A DNA stretch of 56,750 nucleotides, filler included, from Jimgerdemannia flammicorona (Eukaryota): NCBI GenBank assembly GCA_003990765.1. It is 3 parts of 3 records of this genome, joined end to end, with 100 filler letters (N's around TTAATTAATTAA, not from the genome) between each part and the next. Parts side by side here need not be neighbours in the genome. Positions count along the whole stretch, not along the records: positions 1 to 18,854 come from RBNJ01002089.1; 2 more parts are not named here. One strand, 5' to 3'. The notes below the pieces were generated by a model, which saw only the letters and a list, made by a program, of their open reading frames with translations, did no database searches and had not been told where the DNA came from. Below, piece by piece: positions 1 to 37,904 of the stretch. Positions within the stretch are counted from its first letter, which is position 1. Every line of letters starts with the position of its first letter. The translations under genes and the position numbers were made by a program.

Positions 1-99
1 CCCTAACCCTAACCCTAACCCTACCCCCAACCCTAACCCTAACCCTAACCCTAACCCTAACCCTAACCCTAACCCTAACCCTAACCCTAACCCTAACCC
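1..99. repeat. Telomeric repeat (CCCTAA)n, left end of contig 1
   Basis: About 16 CCCTAA units from base 1, with two variants (CCCTAC, CCCCAA at 19-30). C-rich strand on + as expected for a left chromosome end. Confidence 0.97.
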
Positions 100-912
100 A
101 CGGCTGTGCCTCCGGCCGCTAAAGCCGTGCCCCCTAAAAAGGGCAAGGCCAAGGTTCCCGGTTCAGTGCCCCAGGCTACGCTTGTGAGATCCAGTGCCGC
201 CAGTCCGTCTCCATCCCCTGCTTCGACCCCCACCCCCCTCAAATCATACGCCGCAGCTGCCAAGAAGGTCTCTATCAAGGATAGGACCCAGGCCTACCCC
301 GAGACAGAAAGGGCAGCTGCTGCCGCCACCCTTTCACACATGACCCACAAGCTGACCTCTCATTTGTCACCGACTGAGAAGGGCACTAGGCTGCAGCGCA
401 TCTACGTTGACGGATTTGCCCATCTGAAGATCGGGCAGATCCGGAAGAACTTGTACGATGTCCATGTGATTTTGTCAAAGGTTCTCAACATGTCATATGT
501 CTCGGCATTGACCATTGAATTCCTGCTCCACCCTGATTATGTCACGGCATTCCAAAAGAAGATGAAGGTGCTTGGGTTCTCGGTGCTGTCGGCCTGGGAC
601 CCTGCGCTCCCACGTAACAAGAATGCCACGGAGGCCATAAAGACACGGGTTCTCTAATCATTCCATGCTCGGGTCCGGCAGTTGGTAGGCAAAGCCACTG
701 CGAAGAGGCCTGAGGTGCAGACCTTCTACAGGGCATGAGCCACGGAACTTGGCCTCACCCTCCCCTCCCCCGCCTCCCCGTTGGCTGGCCCTGCTTCGAA
801 GGCAGGTGGTACTGTGGCCATGACGGGTGATATGGCGATGGATTTGGAAGCCAAAGCTTCCGCCTCAGGTACTTCCCACGCTGTTGGCGCTAACGCGCCT
901 GGCCCCCAATGA
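100..912 (+). pseudogene. ORF1 C-terminal remnant, copy 1
   Basis: Collinear with copy 2 ORF1 (…LQRIYVDGFAHLKIGQIRKNLYDVH…GPQ*). Premature stops from CAA>TAA (655) and TGG>TGA (~737). Confidence 0.9.
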
Positions 913-3900
913 GAGTCGGGTTCCTCAATACACATGGACTACCCCAGGACAAGTTCGATGTGCTCAGTCAGTTGATTTGTCCTGCCCTCGACGTTCTTTT
1001 CATATGTGAAACGTGGCACATTCCACTGAGTCCCTCTCCACTCATTTACATGTCCTCCCCTCCGGCATTGCACAGGATCATGGGTCACCAGAATGGTGGT
1101 CTCGTGGTCCTTGTGTCAAACTGTTTCGCCCCTCTCATTTCCGGGTCCTCCGCCGACCCCTTCCATATCCGGCTCATATTCCAGGGCCTAGCTTTGGTTG
1201 GGGTTTACGCCCCCCCCTCTCTTCCCATTGGTGGTTTCCGTGATCTAGTGTCTGGACCCTTCCCGGGTAAGGCCCTCTTGGTCAGTGACATCAATACCCA
1301 TTTCAGTGCCCACCTTGGTGACATCAACTCTAGTCCTCACGATCGGATGGATGTCGTCGACACCTCCTTGATGACGTGGTCATTGAACCACCTTACCTCG
1401 GTGGCTGGATCCACACACGTTGACCACGCGTTCGCCACCACATCCCTCCATGCGTCCCTCACCTGCTCCACCCCTCCTGTCGCTACCGATCACTCCTCCC
1501 TCCTCACTCTCTCCTTCTCCTTCTCCCCCTCGCCGGTTGCTGCCTTGCCTGGCGTCCGTCATTACTCTGTGAGATACCTGACCGACCCGGCCGTTCAAGC
1601 TCACCTTTGGGAATCAGCGGATATCATTTGCGATACCGTTATTAGATCTATCTACTCTATTAGAGACCACATTGCCGGCTTTTACTCTGTAGATGATCGC
1701 CAGCAATTTGTGTATTCCCTTGATGCTCTTTTGACCTCTGGTCTACAGTCTGTCTGTGAGGACATTCTTGGCTCGTATGACGCAAGAGAAATCAGAGCAG
1801 TGCCGCTCCCTAGGCATGACCTCTTCTGCAGTGCATCTTCGATCTCTGATGCCATCCGTGATTTTAAGCAAGCATATCGCTCCACCCCCTCCGCACCCCT
1901 TCAGTCTCGCTCCCACAATGTCCCTGTGTTCGATGATGTGGTTGCTCACTTTACCATCATCTTCGGCCAGCCGGACGCCTCCCTCCACCTCGATGACTCT
2001 GAAGAGGTCTTCCCCCTTAGCATGGGTGCTCTTGGACTGCAATCTTGGTTTGACCAACCTGTGGTTTGGAGGGCTGTCTGCAGCTACCCCCTCTCTAAGG
2101 CATGTGGTGCCAACTCCTTGCACGTCCGGATCCTTCGGGTGATGGCGGGTGAGAAGGACGCCCCCTGTAGCCTTTCAAAAGCCCTCTCGTTCTTCTTCCA
2201 GATGTGCATGGTCTGGGGGCTCACTCCCCGCCACTGGAACTCAGCCATCATTACCCCGGTCCCCAAGAAGGAGGTATCGCGTACGATCGATCAATTTTGC
2301 CCTATTGCTCTGACTGAAATGTTTCGCAGACTCTTCAAGCAGTGCTTGGAAGGATATGTCAAGAGCCGAGGTGGCCTGACAGAAATGTTGTGCTGCTAAG
2401 GCGGCTTCCGAACCCACTTCTCATCTCTATCTCATGTCCTGTTATCGCACGAGACATGGGCTAAGGGATGGGGCCGCCGTGTCTTCTTGGACCTCCAGCA
2501 GGCGTATGATTGAGTCCCCCTCAAGTGCATTCTTTCTCGCCTTGAGGTGCGAGGTGCCGATGCAGCCCTCCATAGCATTATTCGAAGCCTGTTCAACCAC
2601 TGTTCTTATCAAGTAGTTGTTAATGGCCTCATCACCTCTTCAGTCACCACTGAGCGCGGCCTTTTTCAGGACTCCCTCCTCTCTCCCTGGCTCTTTGATG
2701 TCTTTATCAATCCCCTCGCTGCCTCCTTTGATGAGCAGTTCAAGGAGTACGACTTTCCCCTCGGGCTCTTCTTTGCTGATGATATTGCTCTTACCCCCCG
2801 CACTGCCGCGGAGGGGCAAAGGATGGTTGATTTTTGCGAAGATTGGCTCCAGGTGAATGGTATGGAGCTCAATCCCAAGAAGTGTGGTTGTGTTGGCCCT
2901 GCTGACTGTACTGTGCTGATTGGGGGCGAACCCTGCCCGTGACCCACCTCCTACGTGTACCTAGGCGTGCCATACACCAACAAAGGGTTTGACTTTATCA
3001 ACCTGGCATTGCAGAATGCAGCAAAGGTGGAATGAACTCTTGGGTTCTACTGCGCCCGTGGTCCCCTCTGGTCGCCAATGGTCAAGCTGGCCATCATATG
3101 AACTTTCATCAGGCCTCAGCTGGAGTATGGCCTCCCCCTTCTACGTGCCTCCTGTCCGGCTACTACCACGGGGCTTCAGGTGTTGAAGCATCCCGAGCAG
3201 GTCTTTGATGACGCTGTCGCTTGGGCGGTTGGATTTTCTGGCCATCCCTTGCTCAGCAGTTCGATTCTCGGCCTCTCTTCCTTCCTTTGTCGTACGTCCG
3301 ACCTCTGCTGCATGTTCCAAGCCCACCTAGATTGGTGTAGCAAGTCGGGCAACAACCCCATCGGCCCTCTTAGCGAGCGCTTTGTCATGCGTCCCTGGGT
3401 TCTATCATTGACAAGTTTCAGCATTGGACCTCTTGGCTTGACTTCCTTGACTGGTACTGGGACCTCCATCCCCAGATCCACAAGACTTGCTCGCTCTGCT
3501 CCTTCCTCCAGTCCTTCCTCTGGGATCAGCTGCTGCAGGAATGGGCCTCCTCCTCTCAGGCTCTCGTTCGGTATATTACCCTCAAAGGCCGTTTACAGTT
3601 AAGGGGCACCGATCGCATCCTTTCCTTCCCCCCCCGGCTTGTGCGTTCTGCTCTTACCTAGTGCTATGGCTATTTTGGCCAACCCCGCCCCTGCCCCTGT
3701 GGAGATAAGTTTCATCGTGGCCATCTCCTCAGGTGCGGTCTTCTTGACGATTCATATTCTGCTTTCTGAGGTTCTTCAGATTGAGATGAACAGCTCGACT
3801 GGTTTATTAGTGACGAATGGCAGGAGGAACTTCATTTCTACTCTCTTCATGCTCTTCATGAGACAGCTTACCACGCCATTGATGCCATGTGTAATTCTGG

Positions 3901-3955
3901 TAGCCACCTCGCGGTCGGGTTCTGCCTGACCGAGATTACGAAGATGCTTGGGTGA
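909..3955 (+). pseudogene. ORF2: APE endonuclease + reverse transcriptase + C-terminal CCHC-like motif (~1015 codons, disrupted)
   Basis: APE motifs: FLNTHG, LFICETW, GVYAPP, (G)DINTH, (RI)DHAF, TDH. RT motifs: WNSAIITPVPKK, (R)PIAL, (Q)GGFR, FLDLQQAYD, RGLFQxSLLSPWLF, FFADD, LNPKKC, YVYLG. C-terminus CPCGDKFHRGHLLRC…KMLG*. First 496 codons open, then several C>T stops and at least one frameshift. No RNase H seen. Confidence 0.93.
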
Positions 3956-4351
3956 TCGAGCGATCATACATTTTCTTTACTCCCTTCTTTCCCCTCATTT
4001 GCCCAGGTTGGTTCTCCCACGTTGTTGAGAATGCATTGAGTTATTCATCTCATGTCAGTCATTTGGTGTTTGGTTGACGATATGGTTCATATAGTAGGCG
4101 CCGGGCGAATGTGTATTATATCTTAGTCTTTCTTTCTTTGCTTTTTGCATTTTACTATCTCTATGGCCGTGACAAAATGGTTTTATCCAGCCCGTCCATA
4201 GGGTAGTCACCTCTCTGGCCTTTGTTTTGTACTTCTTAGCTAGTTGTTTGCTTCGCTGGCCTTGTTTTGCTTTTCTCATCTTAGGAGTTTTTGTCTTTTG
4301 TTGCTCCAATGTAACTTGTCTTTTCTACAATGAATAAATTCTTACTTGAAG

Positions 4352-4367
4352 CCTAACCCTAACCTAA
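4352..4367. repeat. Interstitial telomeric spacer between LINE copies 1 and 2
   Basis: CCTAA CCCTAA CCTAA between the 3' end TTGAAG and the 5' end GCCACTCAC. Confidence 0.9.
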
Positions 4368-4467
4368 GCCACTCACGGGATTTCCCCATTTGGCAAGACT
4401 CGGCTTTACAGTCCGAAGCTATTCCAAATTAAGAAAGCAGTCACTTTGATTAGCTAAGCCTCTCATC

Positions 4468-4481
4468 GGGTATAAATACCC
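4468..4481 (+). promoter_or_regulatory. Putative internal TATA box in the LINE 5' UTR
   Basis: GGGTATAAATACC(C) is conserved in all four 5' UTRs (4468, ~7390, ~12412, ~17578). A GGTCACGTGACC palindrome follows at 4516-4527. Confidence 0.55.
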
Positions 4482-4579
4482 CCCTTCTCTATTATTTTTT
4501 CGTTGTACAAACAAAGGTCACGTGACCCACATTTCACAATTTCACAAAACAAACAAACATACCTCCACCTATTTCGGCA

Positions 4580-6057
4580 ATGTCGGCTACCTCCTCTGTC
4601 ATTGGCGATGACAGCTCCGCTACCTGCCTCTTTGCGCGCTTCAGTGTCTCTCTCCGCTGTGCTGAATGTCGCGGCATCAGTCTTCTCTCCCTCGGCTTTG
4701 GCGAGGGTAGCCTTATGGCGATGTGCAGGTCATGCGGGGATGTACGACCGATTTCGATGCAGAAGATGACGAAGAGATTGCGATCTCTTCCGATTTGGAC
4801 CACGATGCCCAGCGCCCCCCCAATTCTCCCACGCCCCCGCCCCTCAATCGGAACAAGCGTGGTCACCCAAACACTAGTTTGGGAATGACCCCGACAGCCG
4901 GTCGTGCGGGCCCCTCAGCCGACCCCGATCTGGTCATGGAGATGGCCACAATAAGGAAGCAGATCTCAGATCTACTGACTCAAGTGGCCGAACTGGCCAA
5001 GATCAACGTCTATCTGATGGCGCAGCTTGCTGTGCATCATGCGCCCACCACCCCCTCATCATCTGGTGCTCCTTCGGGAAGTACCCCCACTGCCCCTTCC
5101 ACATCAGCCCCCCCCAAGTCCTCGGCCCCCCCTCCTACTGGTCCTGCCACGAACACACGGTCGAAGGCCCAGAAACGAGCGGATAAGTGGGCCACTAAAG
5201 CCACCGCGTTACAGTCTGGTGTGCTGCTGAAGAAGGTAACTCCCCAGGCTGTTCCTCTGGCCGCTAAAGCTATGCCCCCTAAAAAGGGCAAGACCAAGGC
5301 TCCCGGGCCAGTGCCCCAGGCTATGCCTGTAGGACCCAGCGCCACCAGTCCGTCTCCATCCCCTGCTTCGACCCCCGCCCCCCCCAAATTGTATGCCGCT
5401 GTTGCCAAAAAGGTCTCTATCAAGGATAGGACCCAGGCCTACCCTGAGATGGAAAGGGCTGCTGCCGCAGCCGCCCTTTCGCGCATGACCCGCAAGCCAA
5501 CCTCTCATTTGTCGCTGACTGAGAAGGGGGCTAGGCTGCAGCGCGTTTACATCGACGGATTTACCCATCTTAAGATCGGGCAGATCCGGAAGAACTTGTA
5601 TGATGTCCATGTGATGTTGTCAAAAGTTCTCAACATGTCGTATGTCTCAGCATCGACCATCGAATTCCTGCTCTGCCCTGATTATGTCACGGTGTTCCAA
5701 AAGAAAATGAAGGCGCTCGGGTTCTTGGTGCTTTCGGCCTGGGACCCTGCGCTCCCACACAACAAGAATGCCATGGAGGCCATGAAAGCACAGGTACTCC
5801 AATCATTCTATGCTCGGGTCCGGCAGTTGGCAGGCGAAGCCACTGTGAAGACGCCCGAGGTGCAGACCTTCTACCGAGCTTGGGCCGCGGAACTTGGCCT
5901 TACTCTCCCCTCCCCCGCCTCTCCATCAGCCGGCCCTGCTTCGAAGGCAGGTGGTACTGTGGCTATGACTGGTGATATGGCGATGGATTTGGAAGCCGAA
6001 GCTTCCACCTTAGGTGCTTCCCACGCTGTTGGCGCTAACGCGCCCGGCCCACAATAA
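4580..6057 (+). pseudogene. ORF1 of the telomeric LINE (best copy; ~499 aa reconstructed)
   Basis: ATG 4580 frame carries CAEC-x18-CRSC. A 22-nt deletion relative to copies 3/4 at ~4756 shifts it into the 444-codon frame 4723-6057. That frame has a coiled-coil-like segment, a P/S/A/K-rich linker and a compact C-terminal domain. Confidence 0.85.
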
Positions 6058-7179
6058 GAGTTGGGTTTCTCAATGCATACGGACTACCCCAGGACAAGTT
6101 CGATGTACTAAGTCGGTTGATTGGTCCTGCCCTCGACATTCTTTTCATATATGAAACATGGCACATTCCACTGCATCCCTCTCCGCTCATTCACATGTCC
6201 TCCCCCCCAGTGTCGCACAGAATTGTGGGTCACCAGAATGGTAGTCTTGTGGTCCTTGTGTCAAACCGTTTTGCCCCCCTCATTTCTGGGTCCTCCGCCG
6301 ACCCCTTCTATATCCGGCTCATGTTCCAGGGCTTGGCTTTGGTTGGGGTTTACGCCCCCCCCTCTCTTCCCATTGGTGGCTTCCGTGATCTGGTGTCTGT
6401 ACCCTTCTCGGATAAGGCCCTTTTGAGCGGTGACATCAATACCCACTTCGGTGCCTGCCTTGGTAATGTCAACTCTGGTCCTCGCGATCGGATGGATATC
6501 ATCGACACCTCCCTGATGATGTGGTCATTGAACCACCTGACCCCGGTGGCTGGATCCACACGCATTGACCACGCGTTCGCCACCGCGTCCCTCCACGCAT
6601 CCCTTACGTGCTCCACCCCTCCTGTCACTACCGACCACCCCTTCCTCCTCACTGTCTCCTTTCTCTTCTCCCCCTTGCCAGTTGCTGCCTTGGCTGGCAT
6701 CCGTCATTACTCTGCGAGATATCTGACTGACTCGGTCATTTAAGCTCACCTTCGGGAATCAGTAGATATCATTTGTGATACTGTTGTCAGATCCATCTAC
6801 TCTGTCAGAGACCACATCGCCGGCTTTTGCTCTGTGGAAGATCGCCAGCAGTTTGTGGATTCTCTTGATGCCCTTTTGACCTCTGGTCTACAGTCAGTCT
6901 GTGAGGACATTCTTGGCTCGTATGATGCAGGAGAAATCAGGGCAGCGCCACTTCCTAGGTGGGACCTTCTTCACAGTGCATCTTCAGTCTCTGATGCCAT
7001 TCGTGGTTTCAAGCGAGTGTATCGCTCCACCCCCTTTGCGCCTCTCCAATCCCACTCCCTCAACGTCCCGGTGTTCGACAACGTGGTTGCTCATTCACCA
7101 CCATCTTCGGCCAACTGGATGCCTCCCTCTATCTCGATGACTCTGAGGATGTCTTCCCCCTCAGCGTGGGTGCTCTTGG
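6054..7179 (+). pseudogene. ORF2 APE domain remnant, copy 2
   Basis: ETWH, GVYAPP, LSGDINTHF, TRIDHAF, TDH. Start ATG mutated to ATA. Truncated by the deletion. Confidence 0.88.
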
Positions 7180-7278
7180 TTCGCTGGCCTTGTTTTGCTT
7201 TTCTCATCTTAGGAGTCTTTATCTTTTGTTACTCTGATGTACCTTTCTTCTCTATAATGAACAAATCCTTACTTGAAG

Positions 7279-7289
7279 CCTAACCCTAA
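7279..7289. repeat. Interstitial telomeric spacer between copies 2 and 3
   Basis: TTGAAG|CCTAACCCTAA|GCCACTGAC. Confidence 0.9.
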
Positions 7290-10200
7290 GCCACTGACAT
7301 GATTTCCCCATTTGGCTAGACTCAGCTTTACGGCCCGAAGCTATTCCAAATTAAGAAAGCAGTCACTTTGATTAGCTAAGCCTCCCATCGGGTATAAATA
7401 CCCCCCTTCTACATTATTTTTTCGTTGCACAAACAAAGGTCATGTGACCCGTATTTCACAATTTTACAAATACAAACAAACACACCTTCGCCTATTCCGG
7501 CAATGTCAGCCACCTCCTCCGTCATCAGCGATGATGGCAATACCACCTGTCTCTTTGTGTACTTCGGCGTCTCTCTCCGCTGCGCTGAATATCGCGGCGT
7601 CGGTCTTCTTTCTCTTAGCTTCGGCAAGGGTAGCCTTACGGTGATGTGTAGGTCATACGGGGATGCATGACCGATCTCGTCATATTTATCTTCCCTGCAT
7701 GATGCGGAAGATAACGAAGAGATTGCGATCTCTTCCAATTCAGACTACGATGCCCAGCGCCCCCCGTACTCTCCCACACCCCTGCCCTCAACCGGAACAA
7801 GCGCGGTCACCCGAACACTAGTTTGGGAATGATCCCAATGTCCAGTCATGTGGGCCCCTCAGCCGACCCCGATCTGGTCATGGAGTTGGCCACAATGAGG
7901 AAGCAGATCTCAGATCTGCTGACTCAGGTGGCTAAACTGGCCAAGATCAACACCCAGCTGATGGCGCAGCTTGCTGCACATCATGCACCCACCACCCTCT
8001 CATCATCTGGTGCTCCTTCGGGAAGTACCCCTGCCGCCCCTTTCACATCTGCCCTCCCCAAGTCCTTAGCCCCCCCTCCTACTAGTCTTGCCATGAAAAT
8101 ACAGTCAAAGACCCAAAAGTGAGTGGACAAGCGGGCGGCTAAAGCCACCGCATGGCAGTCTGGTGTGCTGCCAAAGGAGATAACTCCCATGGCTATGCCT
8201 TCGGCTGCTAAAGCCACACCCCCTAAAAAGGGCAAGGCCAAGGCTCCCGGGCCAGTGCCCCAGATTACGCCTGTGGGACCCAGTGCCACCGGCCCGTCTT
8301 CGTCCCCTGCTTTGACCCCTGCCCCCCACAAATCTTACGCCGCCACCACCAAGAAGGTCTCTATCAAGGATAGGACTCAGGCCTACCCCAAGACGGAAAG
8401 GACAGCTGCTGCTGCCGCCCTTTCATGCATGACATGTAAGCCGACCTCTCATTTGTCGCCGACTGAGAAGGGAGCTAGGCTCCAGTGCATTTATGTTGAC
8501 GGATTTGCCCATCTTAAGATTGGGTATTTCCGGAAGAACTTGTACAACGTCCATGTGTTGTTGTCAAAAGTTCTCAACATGTCATATGTCTGAGAGTCGA
8601 CCATCGAATTTCTGCTCTGTCTTGATTATGTTATGGTATTCCAAAAGAAAATGAATGCGCTCGGGTTCTCAGTGCTATTGGCCTGAGACCCTGCGCTCCC
8701 ATGCAACAAGAATGCCATGGAGGCCATGAAGATACTGCGAAGAGGCCCAAGGTGCAGACCTTCTACCGAGTTTGGGCTGTGGAACTCGGCCTAGCTCTCC
8801 CCTCCCCCGCCTCCCCATCGGCCAGCCCTGCTTCAGGGGCAGGTGGTACTGTGGCCATGACAGGTAATATTGCAATGGATTTGGAAGCTGAAGCTTCTAC
8901 CTCAGGTGCTTCACATGGTGTTGGCACTAACGCGCCCGGCCCATAATGAGAGTCGGGTTTCTTAATACATATGGACTATCCCAGGACAAGTTCAATGTGC
9001 TCAGTCGGTTGAATGGTCCTGCCCTCGACATTCTTTTTGTATGTGAAATGTGGCAGATCCCACTGCGTCCCTCTCTACTCATTCACATGTTCTCTCCTCC
9101 AGCGTCACATAGGATCGTGGGTCACCAGAATGGTGGTCTCATGGTCCTTGTGTCAAACCGTTTCGCCCCCCTTATTTCTGGGTCCTCTGCCGACTCCTTC
9201 CATATCCTGCTCATGTTCCAGGGCCTGGCTTTGATTGGGTTTATGCCCCCCCCCCTCTTGCCATTGGTGGCTTTCATGATCTGGTGTCTGATTCCTTTCC
9301 GGGTAAGGCCCTTCTGATCAGGGACATCAATACCCACTTCGGTGCCCGCCTTGGTGACATCAACTCTGGTCCTCGTGATCGGATAGATGTCATCGACACC
9401 TCCTTGATGACATTGTCATTGAACCACCTGACCCCAGTGGCTAGATCCACACGTTTTGATCATGCGTTTGCCACCGCATCCCTCGTTGCTACCAATCACT
9501 CCTCCCTCCTCACTATCTCCTTTCCTTTCTCCCCCTTGCCGGTTGCTGCCTTGGCTGGCATCTGTCGTTACTCTGCGAGATATCTGACAGATCCAGTCAT
9601 TCAAGCTCACCTTTGGGAATCAGCAGATATCATTTGTGATACCGTTATCAGGTCTATCTACTCTGTCAGGGACCATATCACCGGCTTTCGCTCCGTGGAA
9701 GATCGCCAGCAGTTTGTGGATTCTCTTGATGCTCTTTTGACCTCTGGTCAACAGTCAGTCTGTGAGGACATTCTTGGCTCATATGATACAAAAGAAATCA
9801 GAGCAGCACTGCTCCCTAGGCAAGACCTCCTTCACAGTGTATCTTCAGTCTCTGATGCTATCCATGGTTTTAAGTGAGCATACCACTCTACCCCCTCCAT
9901 GCCTCTTCAGTCTCGCTCCCCCAATGTCCCAGTGTTCAATGACGTGGTTGCTCATTTGACCACCATCTTCAGCCAACCAGATGCCTCCCTTCGCCTCGAT
10001 GACTCTGAGGATGTCTTCCCCCTCAGCATGGGTGCTCTTGGACTGCAGTCTTGGTTCGACCAACCTGTGGTTTAGAGAGCTGTCCGCAGCTACCCTTTCT
10101 CAAAGGTATGTGGTGCCAACTCCTTGTATGTCCAGATCCTTCGGGTGATGGCAGGTGAGAAGGACGCCCCCTGTAGTCTTTCGAAGGCCCTCTCATTCTT

Positions 10201-12301
10201 CTTCCAGATGTACATTGTCTGTGAGCTCACTCCCCATCACTAGAACTCAGCCATCATTACCTCAATCCCCAAGAAGGAGGAATCGCGAACGATTGATGAA
10301 TTTCGCCCTATTGCTCTGACTGAAATGTTTCATAGACTCTTCAAGCAGTGTTTGGAAGGATACATCAAGAGCCGAAGTGGCCTGACAGAAATATCGCACT
10401 GCCAAGGTGGCTTCCGAACCCACTTCTCGTCCCTCTCTCATATCGTGTTATCGCACGAGACGTGGGCTAAGAGATGGGGCCACCATGTCTTTTTGGACCT
10501 CTGGTAGAAATATGATTGAGTCCCTCTCAAGTGCATTCTTTCCTGCCTTAAGGTGCGAGATGCTGATGCAGTTCTCCATAGTATTATTTGAAGCCTGTTC
10601 AACCACTGTTCTTATCAGGTAGTTGTTAATGGCCTCGTCACCCCTTCGGTCCCCACTGAGCGTGGCCTTTTTCAGGCTTTGATGAGTGGTTCAAGGAGTA
10701 CAACTTCCCCCTTGGGCTTTTATTTGCTGATGATATCGCCCTTACCCCCCGCATTGCCACTGAAGGGCAAAAGATCATTGACTTTTGCAAGGACTGACTC
10801 CGGGTGAATGGTATGGAACTCAATCCCAAGAAGTGTGGTTATGTTGGCCCAGCTGACTGTACTGTGCTAATTGGGGGCGAACCCTGCCCATGACCCACCT
10901 CCTATGTGTACCTGGGTGTGCCGTATACTAATAAAGGATTTGACTTTGTCAATCTTGCGTTGCAGAATATGGCGAAGATAGAATGAACTCTTAGGTTCTG
11001 CTGTGCCCATGGTCCTCTCTGGTCACTAATGGTCAAGTTGGCCATCATACGAATATTCATCAGGCTTCAGCTGGAGTATGGCCTCCCCCTTCTATGTGCT
11101 TCCTGTCTGGCTACTACCACGGGGCTTCAGGTATTGAAGCGTCCTGAGCAGGTCTTTGATGACGCTGTTGCTTGGGTGGTTGGATTTTCTGGCCAGCCCT
11201 TGCTTGGCAGCTCGATTCTTGGCCTCCCTTCCTTCCTTCATTGCACGTCTGACCTCTGCTACATATTCCAAGCCCACCTGGATTGGTGTAGTAAGTCGGG
11301 CAACAACCCCATCGGCCCCCTTAGCGATCACTTTGTCATGCGTCCCCCAGGTTCTATCTTTGACAAATTCTGGTGTTGGATCTCTTGGCTTGACTTCCTC
11401 GACTAGTATTGGGACCTTTGTCCCCAGGTCCACAAGACTCACGCACTCTGCTCCTTCCTCCAGTCTTTCCTTTAGGATCAGCTACTGCAGGAATGGGCTT
11501 CCTCCTCCCAGACTCTCGTTCAGTATATCACCCCCAAAGGCCGTTTGCGGTCACAGGGCGCTGACCACATCCTTTCCTTCCCCCCCCCGGCTTGTGCGTT
11601 CTGCCCTTGCCTAGTGCTATGGCTATTTTGGCCAATCCCACCCCTGCCCCTGTGGAGATAAGTTTCATCATGGCTATCTCCTCAGGTGCAGTCTTCTCGA
11701 TGGTTTGTACTCTGCGTTCCAAGGTTCTTCTGATCGAGATGAACAACTCGATTGGTTTACCAATGATGAATAGTAGGAGGAACTTCACACCTACCTTCTT
11801 CACACTCTTCACGAGACAGCCTACCATGCTATAGACACAATGTGTAATTCTGGTGGCCACCTTGCGGTCGGGTTCTGCCCGACCAAGATTATGAAGATGC
11901 TTGGGTGATCAAGCGATCACACATTTTCTTTACTCCTTTCTCTCCTCTCATTTGTCCCGGTTGGTTCCCCCCATTATTGAGAGTGTATTGAGTTATTCAT
12001 CTCATTTCAGTCGTTTGGTATTTAGTTGTTGATATGGCTCATGTAATTGGCGCCAGGTGAATGTGTATTATATCTTAGCCTTCCCTTTCTTTGCTTTACA
12101 TTTATTATCTTTACGGCCATGACAAAATGGTTTTATCCAGCCTGTCCATAGGTTGGTCACCTCTCTGGGCTTTGTTTTGTACTTCTTAGCTAGTTGTTTA
12201 CTTCGCTGGCCTTGTTTTGCATTTTTCATCTTGGGAGTCATTGCCTTTTATTGCTCTGATGTACCTTATCTTCTCTACAATGAATAAATTCTTACTTGAA
12301 G
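7290..12301 (+). mobile_element. Telomeric LINE copy 3 (near full length, degenerate)
   Basis: ORF1 ~7503-8949 and ORF2 ~8946-11908 with many stops. Small deletions at ~8732, ~9485 and ~10677 (the last removes the RT xSLLSP motif). Same 5' and 3' termini as the other copies. Confidence 0.93.
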
Positions 12302-12312
12302 CCTAACCCTAA
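12302..12312. repeat. Interstitial telomeric spacer between copies 3 and 4
   Basis: TTGAAG|CCTAACCCTAA|TCACTT. Confidence 0.88.
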
Positions 12313-15300
12313 TCACTTATATGATTTCCCCATTTGGCTAGACTCAGCTTTACGGCCTGAAGCTATTCCAAATTAAGAAAGCAGGAGCTATGATTACCTA
12401 AACCTCTCATCGGGTATAAATACCCCCCTTTCCCATTATTTTTTCAATGCACAAATAAAGGTCATATGACCAGCATTTCACAATTTCACAAAAATAAACA
12501 AATAAACCTCTGCCTATTTCAGCAATGTCAGCCATCTCCTCTGTCATCAGTGATGACAGCAATGCCACCCGTCTCTTCATGCACTTCGGTGCTTCCCTCC
12601 ACTGTACTGAATGTTGCGGTATCAGTCTTCTCTCTGTCGGCTTTGGCAAGGGTAGCCTTATAGTGATATGCAGGTTATGCAAGGATGCACAACCGATATC
12701 GTTGTATTTATCTTCCCTGTGTGACGTGGAAGATAACAAAGAGATCTCGATCTCTTCTGATTCAGACCATAACGCCCAGTGCCTCCCCTTTTCTCCCATG
12801 CCCGCCCCTCAATTGGAACAAGTGTGGTCACCCAAACACTAGTTTGGAAATGACCCTGACGGCCGACGGAGCCCCTCAGCTGACCCCAATCTGGTCACAG
12901 AGATGGCCATGATGAGGAAGCAGATCTCGGATCTACTGACTCAAGTGGCCAAATTGGCCAAGATCAATGCCCAGCTGATGGTACAGCTTGCTACGCGATC
13001 TGTGCCCACCGCCCCCTTGTCATCTGGTGCTCCTTTGGGTAGTACCCCTGCTGTCTCTTCTACATCTGCTCCCCCCAAGTCCTCGGCCCCCCCTTTTACT
13101 GATCCTGCCGCGAACACGCAATTGAAGGCCCAGAAGCGAGCAGACAAGTGGGCCACTAAAGCTGCTGCATTACAGTCTGATGCACCACCAAAAGAGATAA
13201 CTCCCATGGCTATGCCTCAGGCTGCTAAAGCCGCGCCCCCTAAAAAGGGCAAAGCCAAGGCTCCCGGGCCAGTGCCCCAGGTTATGCCTGTGGGACCCAG
13301 TGCCGCCGGTCTGTCTTCATCCCCTGCTTTGACCCTCGCCTAATCCAAATCATCTGCTACCGCTACCAAGAAGGTCTCTATCAAGGCTAGGACCCAGGCC
13401 TACCCTGAGACAGAGAGGGCTGCCAGTGCCACTGCTCTCTTATATATGACCCGCAAGCCAACCTCTCATTTATCACCCACTGAAAAGGGCACTAGGCTAC
13501 AGTATGTTTACATTAACAGATTTGCCCATCTTAAGATCGGATAGATCTGGAAGAACTTGTACAACGTCCATATAATGTTGTCAAAAGTTCTCAATATGTC
13601 GTACGTCTTGGCATTGACCATCGAATTCCTGCTCTGCTTGATTATATCATGGTGTTCCAAAAGAAGATGAAGGTGCTCAGGTTCTCGGTGCTGTCAGCCT
13701 GAGACCCCATGCTCCCCTGCCACAAGAATACCATGGAGGCCATGAAGACACAGGTACTCCAATCATTCCATGCTCGGGTCCGGTAGTTGGCAGACAAAGC
13801 CACTGCGAAGAGGCCGGAGGTGCAGACCTTCTACATAGCTTGGGCCACAGAACTTGGCCTTACTCTCCCCTCCCTCACTCCCCTACTGGCTGGCCCTGCT
13901 TCAAAGGCAGGTGGTACTGTGGCCGTGATGGGTGCAATGGTGATGGATTTGGAAGCTAAAGCTTCCTTCTCAGGTGCTTCCCACACTATTTGTACTAATG
14001 CACCTGGCCCACAATGAGAGTTGGGTTCCTCAATGCATACTAACTATCTCAGGACAAGTTTGATGTGCTTAGTTGGCTGATTGGTCCTGCCCTCAACATT
14101 CTTTTCGTATGTGAAATGTGGCACATTCTGCTGCATCCCTCTCCGCTCATTTACATGTTTTCTCTCCTGGCATCGCACAGGATCATGGGCCACCAGAACG
14201 GTGGTCTCATAGTTCTTGTGTCAAACCGTTTTGCCCCCCTTATTTCCAGGTTGTCCACTGATCCCTTCCATATCCAGCTCATGTTCCAGGGCTTGGCTTT
14301 GGTTGGGGTTTATGCTCTCCCCTCTCTTCTTATTGGTGGCTTCCATGATCTTGTGTCTGGACCCTTCTGGGTAAGACCCTTCTGATTAGTGATATCAATA
14401 CCCACTACAGTGCCTGCCTTGGTGATGTCAACTCCAGTCCCCGTGATCAGATGGATGTCATTGACACCTTCCTGATGACGTGGTCACTGAACCACCTAAC
14501 CCCGGTGGCTGGATCTACATACGTTGACTATACATTTGCCAATGTGTACCTCAACATGTCCCTCACATGTTCTACTCCTCCTGTCGCTACCGAGCACCCC
14601 TCACTCCTCACTGTCTTCTTTCCCTTCTCTCCCTCACCAGTCGCTACCTTAGCTGGCGTCCATTGTTACTCTGTGAGATATCTGACCAATCCAGTCATCC
14701 AAGCTCACCTTTGGGAATTAGCGGATATCATGTGCGATATCATTGTCAGGTCCATCTACTCTATCAGGAACCATTTTGCTGGCTTTTGCTCTGTGGAAGA
14801 TTGCTAGCAGTTTGTAGATTCTCTTGATGCCCTTTTGACCTCTGGTCTACAGTCAGTTTGTGAGAACATTCTTGGCGATCAGGGCAGCACCACTCCCTCA
14901 GCAGGACCTTCTTCGCAGTGCATCTTCAGTCTCTGATACTATCTGTGGTTTCAAGCGAGCATACCACTCCACCCCCCTTACTTCCCTCCAATCCCACTCC
15001 CCCAATGTCCTGGTGTTTGATGATGTGGTTACTCACTTTACCACTATCTTCGGTCAACCAGACGCCTCCCTCCACCTTGATGACTCTAAGGATGTCTTCT
15101 CTCTCAGCGTGGGTGCTCTTAGACTACAGCCTTGGTTTGACCAATCTGCGGTTTGGAGGACTATCCACAGCTACCCCCTCTCAAAGGCATGTGGTGATGA
15201 CTCCTTGCATATCTGGATTCTTTAGATGATGGCAGGCGAGAAGGATACCCCCTGTAGCCTCTCGAAAGCCCTTTCATTCTTCTTCCTGATGTGCATAGTT

Positions 15301-17436
15301 TGGGGGCTCACTCCCCGCCACTGGAATTCTGCCATCATCTCCCTTGTCCCCAAGAAGGAGGAATTATATACAATTGATGGATTTCGCCCTATTGCTCTAA
15401 CTGAAATGTTTTGTAGACTCTTTGAGCAGTATTTGGAAGGATATGTCAAGAGCCGAAGTGGCCTGACAGAAATGTCGCACTGCCAAGACAGCTTCCAAAC
15501 CTGCTTCTCATCTCTCTCTCATATCTTGCTATCACACGAGATGTGGGCCAAGGGATGGGGCCACCGTGTCTTTCTGGACATCTGGCAGGCATATGACTGA
15601 GTCCCCCTCAAGCTTATTCTTTCTCGACTTGAGGAGTGAGGTGCTGATGCAGCCCTCCTTAGCATTATCCGAAGCCTGTTCAACCATTGTTCTTACTAGG
15701 TGGTTATTAATGGCCATGTCACCCCTTCGGACCCCACTGAGCATGGCCTCTTTTAGAGCTCCCTCCTCTCTCTCTGGCTGTTTGATGTCTTTATCGATCC
15801 CCTCGTCGCCTCCTTTGATGATCAGTTCAAGGAGTATGACTTCCCACTTTGGCTTTTCTTTGCTGATGATATCACCCTTACTCCCCGCACTGCTACTGAA
15901 GGGCAAAGGATGGTTGATTTTTGCAAAGATTGGCTTCGAGTGAATGGTATGGAGCTCAACCCCAAGAAGTATGGTTATGTCGGTCCGGCTGACTGTACTG
16001 TACTGATTGGGAGTGAACCCTGCCTGCAACCCACCTCCTACGTGTATCTGGGTGTGCTGTACACCAATAAAGGGTTTGACTTTGTCAGCCTTATATTGCA
16101 GAATGTGGCAAAGGCAGAATGAACTCTTGGGTTCTGCCATACTCATGATCCTCTCTGGTTGCCAATGGTCAAGTTGGCTATCATACGAACGTTCATCAGG
16201 CCTCAGCTGGAGTATGGCCTCCCCTTTCTATATATCTCCTGTCCGGCTACTACCACGGGGCTTCAGGTGTTGAAGCATCTCAAGCAGGTCTTTGATGATG
16301 CTGTTGCTTGGGCGGTTGGATTTTCTGGCTATCCTTTGCTTGACAGTTTGATTCTCGGCCTCCCCTCCTTTCTCCGTTGTATCTCTGACCTCTGCTGCAT
16401 GTTCCAAGCCCACCTGGATTGGTGTAGCAAGTCGGACAACAACCCTATCAGCTCCCTTATCAAGTGCTTTGTCATGCATCTCCCAGGTTCCATTATTGAC
16501 AAGTTCCAACATTGGACCTCTTGGCTTGACTTTCTTGACTGGTACTGGGACCTCCATCCCTAGATCTGCAAGACTTGCTTGCTCTGCTCCTTCCTCCAGT
16601 CATTCCTTCGGGATCAGCTGCTCCAGGAATAGGCCTCCTTCTCTCAGGCTCTCATTCGGTATATCACCCCCAAAGGCCGCTTGCGGTTGCGGGGTGCCGA
16701 CCGTGTCCTCTCCTTCCCTCTCTGGCTTGTACATTCCACCCTCACCTGGTGTTATGACTACTTTGGCCAACCCTGCCCCTGCCCCTGTAGAGATAAGTTT
16801 TATCATGGCCATCTCCTCAGGTGTGCCCTTCTTGATAGTTTGTATTCTGCTTTCCAAGGTTCTTCCGATCGAGATGAACAACTCGATTGGTTTTCCAGTA
16901 ATGAATGGCAGGAGGAACTTCATGCCTACCCTCTTCACGCTCTTCACGAGATAGCCTACCATGCTATTGATGCCATGTGTAATTCTGGTGGCCACCTCGC
17001 AGTTAGGTTCTACCTGGCTGAGATTATAAAGATACTTGGGTGATTGAGCGATCGAACATTTTCTTTACTTTTTTCTTTCCTCTCATTTGCCTTGGTTGGT
17101 TCCCCCTATTGTTGAGAATGCATTGAGTTATTCATCTCATATCAGTCATTTGGTGTTTGGGTGTTGATACAGTTCATATAGTTAACGCTGGGCAAATGTA
17201 TATTATATTCTAACTCTCCTTCTTTTTGCTTTTGTATTTATTATCTTTATGGCTGTGACAAAATGGTTTTATCCAGCCCATCTATAGAGTGGTCACTTCT
17301 CTGGCCTTTGTCTCATACTTCTTAGCTAGTTATTACTTCACTGGCCTTGTTTTGCTTTTCTCATCTTAGAAGTCTTTGTCTTTTGTTACTCCGATATACC
17401 TTGTCTTCTCTACAATGAATAAATTCTTACTTAAAG
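12313..17436 (+). mobile_element. Telomeric LINE copy 4 (full length, degenerate)
   Basis: ORF1 12525-14017 and ORF2 14014-17043 (FFADD at ~15856; CPCRDKFYHGHLLRC…KILG*). 3' UTR with AATAAA. Confidence 0.93.
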
Positions 17437-17477
17437 CCTAACCCTAACCCTGACCCTGACCCTAGCCCCTAACCTAA
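17437..17477. repeat. Degenerate interstitial telomeric tract between copies 4 and 5
   Basis: CCTAA CCCTAA CCCTGA CCCTGA CCCTAG CCCCTAA CCTAA. Confidence 0.9.
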
Positions 17478-17678
17478 GCCACTCACGTGATTTCCCCATT
17501 TGGCTAGACTCGGCTTTACAGCCTGAAGCTATTCCAAATTAAGAAAGCAGTCACTTTGATTTGCTAAGCCTCTCATTGGGTATAAATACCATCTTCTCAA
17601 TTATTTTTTTATTGTATAAACAAAGGTCATGTGACCTGCATTTCACAATTTCACAAACAAACAAACATATCTCCACCT
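17478..17678 (+). mobile_element. Telomeric LINE copy 5, 5' UTR only (interrupted by a SINE-like insertion)
   Basis: Matches 4368-4570. Homology stops at CTCCACCT, just before the ORF1 ATG. Confidence 0.88.
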
Positions 17679-18854: not shown

Positions 18855-18954
18855 NNNNNNNNNNNNNNNNNNNNNNNNNNNNNNNNNNNNNNNNNNNNTT
18901 AATTAATTAANNNNNNNNNNNNNNNNNNNNNNNNNNNNNNNNNNNNNNNNNNNN
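18855..18954. other. Artificial contig linker
   Basis: N44-TTAATTAATTAA-N44, a six-frame stop linker of exactly 100 nt. Confidence 0.97.
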
Positions 18955-19060
18955 CCTAACCCTTAACCCTAACCCTAACCCTAACCCTAACCCTAACCCT
19001 AACCCTAACCCTAACCCTAACCCTAACCCTAACCCTAACCCTAACCCTACCCGTCCCTTA
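18955..19060. repeat. Telomeric repeat (CCCTAA)n, left end of contig 2
   Basis: About 15 CCCTAA units, then degenerate CCCTAC CCGT CCCTTA at the inner edge. Confidence 0.95.
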
Positions 19061-21581: not shown

Positions 21582-24500
21582 CACTCCCACACAATAAGAA
21601 TGCCATAGAGGCTATGAAGATATGGGTACTCTAATCATTCTATACTCAGATCTGGCAACTGGCTGGCAAAGCCACTGTGAAGAGGCCTGAGGTACAGATC
21701 TTTTACAAGACATGGGCCATGGAACTTGGCCTTACCCTTCCCTCTCTTGCCCCCCCAATGGCTGACTCTGCTTCAAAGGCAGGTAGTACTGTGGCTATAA
21801 CTGGAGAGATGGTGATGGATTTGGAAGCTGAGGCTTCCTCTTCAGATACTTCTCATGCTATTGGTGTTAATATGCCTAGCCCACAATGATAGTTGGGTTC
21901 CTCAATACACATGGACTACCTCAGGACAAGTTTGATGTACTCAGTCAGTTAATTGGTCCTGCCCTCAATATTCATTTCATTTGTGAAATGTAGTATATTC
22001 TGCTATATCTCTCTCTACTCATTCACATGTCTTCCCCCCCATTATTACACAGGATTGTGAGTTACCAGAATGTGATCTCATGGTTCTCATATCAAACAAT
22101 TTTGCCTCACTCATTTCCGGGTCCTCTGCTGACCTCTTCTATATCTGGCTCATATTCTAGGACTTGGCTTTGGTTGGGGTGTATACTCCCTACTCTCTTC
22201 CCATTGGTGGGTTCTGTGATCTTGTATCTGGCCCCTTTCTGGGTAAGGCCCTTTTGATCAGGGACATTAATACCCATTTTGATACCCACCTTGGTGACAA
22301 CAACTGTGGTCCTAGGAATCAGATAGATGTCATTAATACCTCTCTGATGATGTGGTTATTGAACTACCTAACTCTGGTGACTGGATCCATATGCATGATC
22401 ACATATTCGCTACTGTGTCCCTCCATGTATCTCTTGCCTGCACCACTCCCTCTATTGCTACCGACCACCCCTCCCTCCTCACTGTCTCCTTCCTCTTCTC
22501 CCCCTCTCCAGTTGCCACTCTGACTAATATCTGTCACTATTCTGCAAGATATCTGACTAATCCAGTCATTCAAGCTCACCTTTAAGAATTAGCAGATATC
22601 ATTTACAATACTGTTATCAGGTCCATTTACTCTATTCAAGACTATTTTGCTGGCTTTCACTCTGTAGAAGATCACCAGCAATTTGTGGATTCTCTTGATG
22701 CCCTTTTAACCGCTGGTCTACAGTCCATCTGTGAGGACATTCTTGGCTCATATAATGCAAGAGAAATCAGACCCTCAGCAGGACCTCCTTTACAGTGCAT
22801 CTTCGGTCTCTGATACCATTCATGGTTTCAAATGAGCATACCACTCCACTCTCTCTACTCTCCTTCAATCTCGCTCCCACACTATCTCTATTTTTGATAA
22901 TGTGGTTGCTCACTTTACTACTATCTTCAGTCAACCAGACACCTCTCTCCACCTTGATGACTCTGAGGATGTCTTCCCCCTTAGCATAGGTGCTCTTGGG
23001 CTACAGTCTTGGTTTGACCAATCTGCAGTTTGGAGGGTTATCTGCAGCTACTCCCTCTCGAAGGCCTGTAGAGCTGACTCCTTGTATGTTCAGATCCTTT
23101 GGATGATGGTGGGTGAGAAGGATGCCCCCTGTAGCCTCTCCAAAGCCTTGTCCTTCTTCTTCCAGATGTGTATGGTCTGGGGGCTCACTCCTCATCACTG
23201 GAATTCTGCAATTATCACCCCGGTTCCCAAGAAGGATGAATCTAGGATAATTGATAGATTTCACTCTATTGCTCTCCCCAAAATATTTTGTAGACTCTTT
23301 GAGTGGTATTTGAAAGATTACGTCAAGAGCTGAAGTGGCCTGACAGAAATGTCACACTGCCAAGATGACTTTCGAACCCACTTCTCATCTCTTTTCCATG
23401 TCTTGCTTTCACATGAGATATGGGCAAAGGGGTGGGGCCACCACATCTTCCTTGACCTCTAGCAGGTGTATGATAGAGTCTCCCTCAAGCTCATTATTTC
23501 TCGACTTGAGGCATGAAATTCTCCTTACCATTATTCAAAGCCTGTTCAATCACTGTTCTTATCAGATGATTGTCAATAGCTTTGTCACCCCTTTGGTCTC
23601 CACTGAGCATGGCCTTTTCCAAGGCTCTCTTCTCTCCCCTGGCTCTTTGATATCTTTATCAACCCTCTCGCTGTCTCCTTTAATGAACAGTTTAAGGAGT
23701 ATGACTTTCCCCTCGGGCTCTTCTTTGCTGATAAAATTGCCCTCACCCCCTATACTGCTATGGAAGGACAGAGGATAATGGAACTTAACCCTAAGAAGTG
23801 TGGTTATATTGACCTGGCTGACTGTACTATATAGATTGGAAGCAAGCCCTACCTGTGACCTCCCTCCTATGTATACCTGAGTGTGCTGTATACAAACAAA
23901 GGTACAAAGGTGGAACATACTCTTGGATTCTACCATGCCCATGGTCCCCTCTGGTCACCAATGGTCAAGTTGGCCATTATTCAAACATTCATCAGTCCTT
24001 AGCTGGAGTATGGCCTCCCCCTTCTATGAGCTTTCCGTCTGGCTACTACCATGGAGCTTCAGGTATTAAAGCATCCCGAGAAGGTCTTTGATGATACTGC
24101 TGCTTGGGTGGTCAGATTTTTCAATTGTCTCTTACTTGGCAGCTTAATTCTTGGCCTCTCTTTCTTCCTTCATCATATATCAGACCTCTGCTGCATATTC
24201 CAAGCCCATCTGGATTAGTGTAGCAAGTCTGGCAACAATCCCTTTGGCTCTCTTAGCAAGTGCTTTGTCACATGTCTCCTGGGTTCTATTATTGACAAGT
24301 TCCAGCATTGGACCTCTTGGCTTGACTTCCTCAACTGGTACTGAGACCTCCATCCCTAGACCTATAAGACTTGCTTACTTTGCTCCTTCCTTAAGTTGTT
24401 TCTCCAGGACCAGCTGCTCCAGGAATGGACTTTCTCCTCTCAGGAACTCATTCAGTATATTACTCCGAAAGGCTGCTTGCAGTCTCAGGGTACCAATCAT

Positions 24501-25230
24501 GTCCTCTCCTTCCCCCTCCAGCTTGTACATTCTACCCTTACCTGGTGTTATGACTACTTTGGCCAGCCCTGCCTCTGCCCCTGTAGTGATAAGTTTCATC
24601 ATAGCCATCTCCCCAGATACAGTCTTCTCAATGACACCTATTCTGCCTTCCAAGATACTTCCAATCATGATGAACAACTTAATTGGTTTATCAGTAATAA
24701 ATCGCAGGATGAGCTTCATGTCTACCCTCTTCATACTCTTTACAAGACAGCCTACCACACTATAGAGGCCATGTATAATTCTGGTGGTCACCTTGCAGCT
24801 GGGTTCTGCCTGGCCAGGATTATAAAGATACTTGGATGATTGAGCGATCACACATTTTCTTTATTCCTTTCTTCCCCCTCATTCACCTGGTTGGTCTCCT
24901 TGTTGTTGAGAGCACATTAAGTTATATATCTCATATCAGTTACTTGGTATTTGGGTATTAATATTGTTCCTGTAGTTGGCACCAGGCATTTGAGTATTTT
25001 ATCTTAGTTTCTCTCCTTTCTGCTTTTTGTATTTATTATCTTTACAGCCATGATAAAATGGTTTATTCAGTCCATCTATAGGGTGGTCACCTCTTTGGTC
25101 TTTGTTTTGTTCTTCCAAGCTAGTTGTTACTTCACTGGCCTTTTTTTGCTATTCTCATTTTAGGAGTCTTTGCCACTTGTTACTTTGATGTATCTTATCT
25201 TCTTTACAATGAATAAATCCTTACTTGAAG
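21582..25230 (+). mobile_element. Telomeric LINE copy 6 (5'-truncated, strongly decayed)
   Basis: Starts within ORF1 (LPHNKNA). ORF1/ORF2 junction at 21886-21889 and ORF2 end at 24839. Ends CTTACTTGAAG followed by CCTATCCCTAGCCCTAG. Same orientation relative to its telomere as the contig 1 copies. Confidence 0.92.
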
Positions 25231-25247
25231 CCTATCCCTAGCCCTAG
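25231..25247. repeat. Fossil (degenerate) telomeric tract
   Basis: CCTAT CCCTAG CCCTAG immediately 3' of LINE copy 6. Confidence 0.75.
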
Positions 25248-37804: not shown

Positions 37805-37904
37805 NNNNNNNNNNNNNNNNNNNNNNNNNNNNNNNNNNNNNNNNNNNNTTAATTAATTAANNNNNNNNNNNNNNNNNNNNNNNNNNNNNNNNNNNNNNNN
37901 NNNN
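37805..37904. other. Artificial contig linker
   Basis: N44-TTAATTAATTAA-N44. Confidence 0.97.

Follow-up and report, generated by a model that had tools for sequence, protein, structure and literature searches.

What leads a retrotransposon to end, copy after copy, directly on telomere repeats, in the same register and without a poly(A) tail? This question is raised by a family of repeats in a 56,750-nt stretch of DNA (linkers included) from Jimgerdemannia flammicorona, referred to below as the window. The repeats are copies of a long interspersed nuclear element (LINE) with a reverse transcriptase (RT), an N-terminal endonuclease of the apurinic/apyrimidinic endonuclease (APE) type and an additional open reading frame (ORF), ORF1. 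They apparently represent an undescribed, phylogenetically deep, telomere-specific family of APE-type LINEs whose 3' ends lack poly(A) and whose junction phase is conserved. Their distribution is best explained if the family inserts solely next to telomere repeats, always oriented so that the sense strand is the C-strand and the 5' end faces the chromosome tip. The mechanism that we favor, and regard as probable if not securely so, is site-specific target-primed reverse transcription at the innermost telomere repeats, in which a telomeric read-through tail on the RNA would pair with the 3' end of the G-strand.

Five copies at two chromosome ends

The window consists of three contigs placed end to end via 100-nt linkers (18855-18954 and 37805-37904). 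Because the contigs are separate, seeming features across the linkers, such as an "interstitial" telomere, are artifacts of concatenation. Contig A (1-18854) comprises, in order, a terminal (CCCTAA)n tract, copies 1 to 4 of the element, the 200-nt start of a further copy, and a 1.2-kb repeat. Copies 1 to 4 form one array at the contig A telomere, and copy 5 lies on contig B, about 2.5 kb inside its telomere. A preliminary description of this DNA had treated the five 3' ends as a single array, a view that had to be given up, since the fifth is on the second contig; an array of five copies with an age gradient was likewise ruled out, as there are four copies plus a relic on the other contig. For the tract at 18955-19049, the N/TTAATTAATTAA linkers ruled out an interstitial telomere with an inverted repeat on either side. 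The family has the same orientation at both telomere-bearing contigs: the sense strand is the C-strand, and the 5' end points toward the tip. The features are as follows.

1..99, plus strand (C-strand on plus): terminal (CCCTAA)n of contig A, a chromosome end (TRF; period 6, 16.5 copies)
97..4351, plus strand: copy 1, with about 896 nt missing at the 5' end (self-BLAST, 97..7177 versus 8186..15120)
4333..4338, plus strand: AATAAA of copy 1, 13 nt before the 3' junction
4352..4367, plus strand: telomeric spacer after copy 1 (16 nt, CCTAACCCTAACCTAA)
4368..7278, plus strand: copy 2, with a complete 5' end (GCCAC...), an internal deletion of about 2.16 kb, and the final 99 nt retained
7260-7265 (AACAAA), 12283-12288, 17418-17423, and 25212-25217, plus strand: equivalents of the AATAAA signal in copies 2 to 5
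7279..7289, plus strand: telomeric spacer after copy 2 (11 nt, exactly CCTAACCCTAA)
7290..12301, plus strand: copy 3, full length (5012 nt), reading frames broken
12302..12312, plus strand: telomeric spacer after copy 3 (11 nt, exactly CCTAACCCTAA)
12313..17436, plus strand: copy 4, full length (5124 nt), 5' TCAC rather than GCCAC, reading frames broken
17437..17477, plus strand: degenerate telomeric spacer after copy 4 (41 nt, beginning with CCTAACCCTAA)
17478..17678, plus strand: first ~200 nt of a further copy (GCCACTCACGTG..., with TATAAATA at 17581-17588; self-BLAST, 7180..7493 versus 17337..17678)
18855..18954, no strand: assembly linker at the border of contigs A and B (44 N, TTAATTAATTAA, 44 N)
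18955..19049, plus strand: terminal (CCCTAA)n of contig B, a second chromosome end (TRF)
21584..25230, plus strand: copy 5, 5'-truncated and the most decayed (GC content, 44%; CpG observed/expected, 0.11)
25231..25247, plus strand: degenerate telomeric tract after copy 5 (17 nt, CCTATCCCTAGCCCTAG), followed by unique sequence

The second linker (37805-37904) has the same composition, 44 N, TTAATTAATTAA and 44 N. The deletion in copy 2 is the equivalent of 10042-12202 in copy 3 (self-BLAST, 4248..7179 versus 7176..10041 and 7180..7493 versus 17337..17678). The further copy is interrupted by the unrelated 1.2-kb repeat, which reaches the end of contig A, and the tract behind copy 5 is a relic of a former telomere.

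The window was searched with the 15-nt junction pattern CTTACTTRAAGCCTA, allowing up to 2 mismatches. Exactly five matches were obtained (4341, 7268, 12291, 17426, and 25220), all on the plus strand and all without a mismatch; 0.36 matches were expected from shuffles, and none of 100 shuffles reached five. Every 3' end in the window reads CTTACTT(G/A)AAG|CCTA (site sequence, ...AATGAATAAATYCTTACTTRAAG), with the C-strand telomere tract directly after it, and no A-run was found at the junction in any of the five copies. AATAAA ends 13 nt before the junction in four of them, and copy 2 has AACAAA. The preliminary description had given these ends, signals, and missing A-tails in the same form, had taken them for the true 3' ends of an APE-bearing non-LTR (long terminal repeat) retrotransposon in fixed register on the C-strand repeat, and had noted that the 11-mer CCTAACCCTAA makes up two whole spacers and starts two more. 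All of this was borne out, and the 11-mer recurs in unrelated sources (L001 and L004, two of the related loci described below).

The 5' ends also are constant, with CCTAA|GCCAC at 4368, 7290, and 17478 and CCTAA|TCAC at 12313; they are complete to within 1 to 2 nt in four of five cases. The truncated 5' end of copy 1 is fused to the terminal telomere (...CCCTAACCC|ACGG). The 5' region carries CACGTG at +7 (17484-17489), which has decayed at its CpG in other copies (equivalents near 4368 and 7290), and L001, L003, and L009 have motifs of this type close to their 5' ends. At about +104 (17581-17588) lies TATAAATA. If this TATA box is used, transcripts would start some 130 nt or more inside the element, and it would then have to be explained how the 5' end is passed on.

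Decay affects all five copies. Their longest stretch of ORF2, in copy 1 (894-2399; APE and the start of RT), encodes 501 aa, versus 985 to 1162 aa in intact relatives. Pairwise divergence of the copies is 12.8 to 21.8%. Private substitutions amount to 4.8% in copy 1, 6.5% in copy 3, 7.6% in copy 4, and 12.3% in copy 5 and are mostly C>T and G>A, and the CpG observed/expected ratio is 0.61 to 0.69 in the distal copies and drops to 0.51, 0.37, and 0.11. Decay by C>T and G>A together with loss of CpG (0.69 to 0.11) is as expected if the copies were cytosine methylated.

The array could also have arisen by amplification at the DNA level of a unit of element plus spacer, through unequal exchange or through telomere-attrition-induced replication that invades interstitial repeats, as in MoTeR arrays. 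Two neighboring spacers are identical 11-mers, copies 1 to 3 are about equidistant (12.8 to 14.0%), and MoTeR arrays amplify in this manner in telomerase knockouts (PMC8381367, excerpt). However, only 3 of the 32 internal indels are shared between copies, and these imply no consistent grouping, the remaining 29 each being private to a single copy. The copies also are unequal in CpG and GC content, the 11-mer and the register are found also in unrelated sources and families, and copy 5 lies at another chromosome end. We consider this explanation improbable. Given the private indels, the divergence, and the CpG differences, the copies look like separate insertions from a once intact source rather than DNA-level duplicates of an already decayed copy; duplication straight after insertion may have occurred.

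The element and its relatives

Pfam analysis revealed RVT_1 in the window ORFs (2514-2942, E 2.3e-11, and 15757-16122) and in the ORF2 of all five relatives scanned. No Pfam endonuclease was detected in the window or in these five relatives; PF03372 was found on protein P0006. A family profile was built from the 501-aa ORF2 piece and seven distant homologues (24 to 33% identity). It aligned with human L1 ORF2p from residue 6 to residue 802 (E 5e-44) and matched R2 proteins at E 1e-33 to 1e-36. In a profile search of solved structures, L1 ORF2p was nearest and no R1-clade chain reached E 1; kinship is judged here by profile and fold comparison with solved proteins. A protein cluster search with ORF2 returned LINE-like clusters, none with a taxon on record, and the same kind of search with a kinase of contig B pointed to Mucoromycota, a tentative hint at the host.

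The N-terminal domain was analyzed using an AlphaFold (AF2) model of ORF2 residues 1 to 250 (894-1643), computed from a 20-row alignment (predicted local distance difference test score [pLDDT], 84). The top folds matched by the model were the endonucleases of R1Bm (first), L1 (second), and TRAS1 (1wdu_B, E 3.5e-9), followed by cellular APE1, all with probability 1.00. N12, E39, Y105, D132, N134, D177, H178, and H200 do not vary among the 20 sequences; at the C terminus, a protein alignment shows a C-x2-C...H-x3-C motif only. ORF1, upstream of ORF2, has a Cys motif and a coiled-coil-like stretch, and its conserved C-terminal domain is common to nine related loci; Pfam gave no family for the five ORF1s scanned, bar one chance-level PARP match. 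The copies stand head to tail and have no terminal repeats (no LTRs), and copies 1 and 5 are 5'-truncated. The element is thus an APE-type LINE.

Recurrence of a 3' end among copies of one repeat is trivial, so that only the shared telomeric register is informative, and relatives alone can replicate it independently. Metagenome contigs were scanned with a 5-row ORF2 alignment, and 284 relatives were confirmed, of which the best 80 were retained (379,859 nt). The 10-mer CCTAACCCTA occurs 15 times in 8 of these loci on the sense strand and once on the other strand, where about 0.36 per strand would be expected, and every such tract sits directly behind a 3' untranslated region (UTR). Relatives with 24 to 33% protein identity have AATAAA 0 to 14 nt upstream of the junction, no poly(A), and 9 to 28 nt of C-strand repeat, mostly starting with CCTAA.

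A tree of 36 rows was computed from the window, 7 proteins, and 28 loci taken from the 63 with an ORF of at least 450 aa (17 from the 19 best-ranked loci and 11 more distant ones). All 11 rows with a telomeric 3' end fall within a single clade of 25 rows (support, 99%). Its remaining 14 members are the 7 proteins, for which there is no DNA, 5 loci whose contig stops before a recognizable 3' end (L008, L010, L012, L016, and L019), and 2 without an assignable end (L002, which is AT-rich and A-rich, and L014). L018, which is outside the tree, ends GACGCTTAA|CTCCTAAC. All five window junctions and every recognizable 3' end in the clade are compatible with insertion in telomere repeats at one phase and in one orientation. 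The sister of the clade (99% support), L020, has an intact 1174-aa ORF2 and a 635-nt 3' UTR; there, AATAAA and 13 nt are followed by TTAGGGTTAGGG, which is G-strand on the sense strand and therefore in the opposite orientation, and then by an ORF1-like frame.

The terminal anatomy, AATAAA followed by a few nucleotides, no A-tail, and a short C-strand tract, is common to this deep clade. The telomere tracts at the junctions are all 9 to 41 nt long, and the exact 11-mer CCTAACCCTAA forms the whole tract twice in the window, in L001 (5746-5756), and in L004. The tract starts exactly with CCTAA in 9 of 13 C-strand families, with G, A, or T as the last base of the element, and with CCCC(C)TAA in the other four. 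A long A-run was present at none of the 19 tabulated junctions; L013 has 3 extra A's. Within the 30 nt before the junction, 9 of 14 families have AATAAA (background, 0.58%; binomial p, 1e-17), and another two have ATTAAA. As the families are related, the counts across these junctions are not independent.

The elements of L004 and L007 barely align with each other (259 nt at 65.6%). Both lie at the same subtelomere (3.7 kb at 96.8 to 98.3% identity), where their tracts measure 11 nt and 23 nt. They represent two independent insertions, both at the inner edge of the telomere.

Two of these loci carry additional sequences. Just distal to the element in L004 (1676-3126) are a 5.8S rRNA gene, internal transcribed spacer 2 (ITS2), and the first ~390 nt of 28S rRNA, matched in Rfam at E 6e-27 and 2e-67, in the same direction as the element and connected to its 5' region through TAACCCTAG. 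This ribosomal DNA (rDNA) piece is either a captured fragment at a chromosome end or a template-switch chimera. L001 contains short units without ORFs in the same array (1-172 and 5338-5804), with CCTAACCCTAA-type tracts at their bounds: a 118-nt unit that joins the initial 38 nt of the full element to an unrelated 3' end, and an element of about 410 nt followed by a 5'-truncated copy of itself. These short units may be nonautonomous passengers of the same machinery.

Start of reverse transcription

We infer the RNA tail and the nick of the favored mechanism from sequence comparison. A G-strand 3'-OH would be provided within the innermost ~2 repeats of the telomere or spacer, most likely by the element's own endonuclease. 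The G-strand 3' end would then pair with a short CCUAA-repeat tail of the transcript, which may arise because transcription enters the flanking repeats before the 3' end is cleaved downstream of AAUAAA. Synthesis of cDNA would begin at the boundary of element and telomere, any poly(A) beyond the tail would stay uncopied, and the AAG|CCTAA register would be passed from copy to copy and not remade by each nick. Two precedents bear on this scheme. In R2Ol, retrotransposition rises strongly when read-through target sequence at the 3' end can anneal to the target (PMC6530143, excerpt), and the SART1 3' UTR contains telomere-like triplets able to start reverse transcription (PMC7265360, excerpt).

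The evidence for the tail comes from L004 and L007. Their AATAAA lies 1 nt and 0 nt, respectively, from the junction, and cleavage must consequently fall in the telomeric flank. The preliminary description had offered two models, an APE nick at TTAGG^G and a telomere-tailed RNA that primes on the G-overhang. Its fixed register without an A-tail stands, but the register does not separate the nick from RNA-tail priming: with CCUAA repeats on the RNA, any in-phase G-strand 3' end yields AAG|CCTAA, and a TTAGG^G nick therefore is unreadable from the junction.

The endonuclease alone might nevertheless set the register. Here the transcript would be cleaved 13 nt after AAUAAA, at ...AAG, and polyadenylated; APE would nick TTAGG^G; and RT bound to the 3' UTR would start at the last templated base and skip the A-tail, so that each nick remakes the register. 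The usual gap of 10 to 14 nt between signal and junction is in keeping with this, and in Hebe, poly(A) begins 11 bp after AATAAA (PMC2861651). The APE fold and its catalytic residues are conserved, tracts start with CCTAA in most C-strand families whatever the last base of the element, and cleavage of telomere repeats by the TRAS1 endonuclease has a single phase (PMC7265360, excerpt). However, the signals of L004 and L007 are too near the junction for cleavage there. APE LINEs with poly(A) RNA usually copy part of the tail, which is not seen at any tabulated junction here, and the SART1 clones all have poly(A) joined to the repeat (PMC7265360, excerpt). No conserved 3' stem that could anchor a stringent start was found. 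This reading is, in our view, unlikely.

Several observations weigh against the favored mechanism. In 10 of the 12 tabulated families with AATAAA or ATTAAA, 10 to 14 nt separate the signal from the junction (13 nt in L003). Such a gap also fits cleavage at the junction, so that the RNA tail in the window family rests on the analogy with L004 and L007; at its 13-nt gap, a tail is possible but not forced. AATAAA is missing from the L001 mini-unit, L015, and L017. The spacer is 11 nt long in families with AATAAA gaps of 1, 11, and 13 nt, indicating that its length is not simply set by the cleavage site. No conserved 3' RNA stem-loop was evident in the last ~120 nt plus spacer of the five window copies, whose consensus fold was weak (-10.7 kcal/mol), with compensatory change at none of 29 pairs. 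The shared register of the relatives could stem from common descent rather than from mechanism. Every copy in the window is dead, and the exact window family was not seen in intact form. Finally, because the L003 contig ends are 100% identical over 123 nt (1-123 and 5461-5583), this locus is a collapsed tandem array of element plus spacer (CCTAAATAACCCTAA).

The source of the 3'-OH is a separate matter. In telomerase-style healing without a nick, RNA ending in CCUAACCCUAA would pair with the G-overhang of a short or bare end and be copied by RT; the 11-nt spacer would be a copied RNA tail on ends without repeats, and arrays would grow toward the tip as in Drosophila. In favor of this, all tracts at the junctions are short although the terminal tract is at least 99 nt, the exact 11-mer lies upstream of the 5'-truncated short element in L001, decay in contig A is milder in the distal than in the proximal copies, and the orientation is as expected for G-strand priming. 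L1 is also said to use dysfunctional telomeres without its endonuclease, as Morrish reportedly found in 2007. On the other hand, the endonuclease is conserved across the clade (fold and catalytic residues, 20 family members), and no natural 3' overhang can prime the opposite orientation of (TTAGGG)2 in L020. Moreover, four of five window 5' ends are complete and identical, unlike those of eroding terminal copies, and the window ends still bear ordinary telomerase-type repeats. We regard healing of this kind as doubtful, and the conserved endonuclease together with the orientation in L020 makes it likely that the 3'-OH of the favored mechanism comes from a nick rather than from a natural overhang.

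TRAS1 and SART1 endonucleases need 10 to 12 bp, i.e., 2 to 3 telomere repeats (12 bp for SART1) (PMC7265360, excerpt). Short tracts fit a nick that needs about 2 repeats on the primer side, or insertion at very short telomeres; as a third option, they also fit loss of longer interstitial tracts. In Magnaporthe, interstitial tracts of over 3 repeats break (PMC7367193).

The spacer is exactly 11 nt even upstream of the 5'-truncated short element in L001, which argues for a deterministic cause. It could correspond to the recognition length of the endonuclease, to an 11-bp staggered cut that duplicates the target upstream, or to the RNA tail itself. Eleven nucleotides is also the length of the template region of telomerase RNA. 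We considered, as a long shot, a halfway house between LINE and telomerase, in which the RNA ends in an 11-nt C-strand template, CCUAACCCUAA, and RT re-seeds repeats on bare ends before copying the element; the spacers then would be RNA templated, and the arrays would be a backup form of end maintenance widespread in soil fungi and their relatives.

Known telomeric elements and neighboring sequences

Telomere-targeting retrotransposons are known from a handful of lineages. The way of working proposed here is closest to that of TRAS1 and SART1 of Bombyx mori (R1 clade) and, for the start of reverse transcription, to that of R1 and R2. Like the present family, TRAS1 and SART1 combine an APE endonuclease, RT, and ORF1 and occupy telomere repeats at one phase in a fixed orientation; about 2 to 3 repeats suffice as their target (PMC7265360, excerpt). 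TRAS and SART have opposite orientations on the insect repeat, resembling the clade versus L020 here (PMC7265360 and PMC10088271, excerpts). Unlike this family, they have poly(A) at their junctions (PMC7265360, excerpt), their target is TTAGG in insect hosts rather than TTAGGG in what is probably a fungus, and the window family is, by sequence profile, nearest L1 ORF2p among solved proteins. The green anole element Tx1-1_ACar (Kojima and Jurka, 2013), compared by description only, is by title and listing an APE-type, L1-like LINE specific for vertebrate-type telomere repeats (PMC10088271, excerpt).

MoTeR1/2, FoTeR, and Cnl1, of the CRE clade, share with the window family a fungal host, (TTAGGG)n telomeres, head-to-tail arrays with short telomere tracts, and a telomere repeat after the 3' end (PMC12857005, PMC7367193, and PMC8381367, excerpts). 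Their endonuclease, however, is restriction enzyme-like and follows RT (PMC12857005), whereas an N-terminal APE is found here. In MoTeR, moreover, the 5' end carries variant telomere-like repeats in a long run (PMC7367193); no such run occurs at the window 5' ends, which pass directly into unique sequence, CCTAA|GCCACTCAC....

R1Bm and R2 resemble the family in the proposed working, in that the RNA ends in read-through target sequence, whose pairing with the nicked target determines where reverse transcription begins (R2Ol; PMC6530143, excerpt). They differ in their target, 28S rDNA, with no telomere association, and the R2 endonuclease is of a different type. For R1Bm, pairing of read-through target sequence with the nicked target was reportedly described by Anzai in 2005.

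Athena/Coprina and HeT-A/TART likewise form head-to-tail terminal arrays with 3' ends toward the centromere. Athena is proposed to pair with the overhang through telomere-repeat sequence at its 3' end. Athena and Coprina are Penelope-like, with no endonuclease and another RT class, in contrast to the conserved APE and the RT profile nearest L1 and R2 here. The junctions of HeT-A and TART contain oligo(A), and their 5' truncation is variable, whereas the present family has no A and precise 5' ends. The Hebe paper calls Athena "specialized for terminal transposition" (PMC2861651).

No description of a fungal or Mucoromycota APE-type telomeric LINE was found in the literature searched, a scope that left out Repbase Reports and most subscription journals; the telomeric fungal elements in the literature examined have a restriction-like endonuclease only and belong to the CRE clade (PMC12857005). 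The present family uses TTAGGG-type telomeres without poly(A) and keeps its junction phase where only a quarter to a third of ORF2 residues are shared. If studied in a host with intact copies, it would be a second, independent system besides TRAS/SART, in which the reading of the telomere repeat by APE, the start of RT without poly(A), and the possible seeding of damaged ends by RNA tails are open to study. For annotation, short interstitial CCTAACCCTAA motifs beside LINE ends can be taken as insertion footprints.

Other repeats and ORFs were noted in the window. The 1.2-kb repeat occurs three times with 75 to 87% identity (17679-18854, plus strand; 19317-20493, minus strand; and 46157-47329, plus strand), and the one that closes contig A reads as the reverse complement of that next to the contig B telomere. 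By homology of this repeat, contig A would continue into a second, oppositely oriented telomere. Contigs B and C further contain a 174-nt tandem repeat of 11 copies (30758-32689), a protein kinase ORF on the minus strand (33432-34781) whose C-terminal part is a 27-nt (9-aa) repeat, and, called by eye from its translation, an LTR-retrotransposon-like pol fragment, also on the minus strand (38382-39407).

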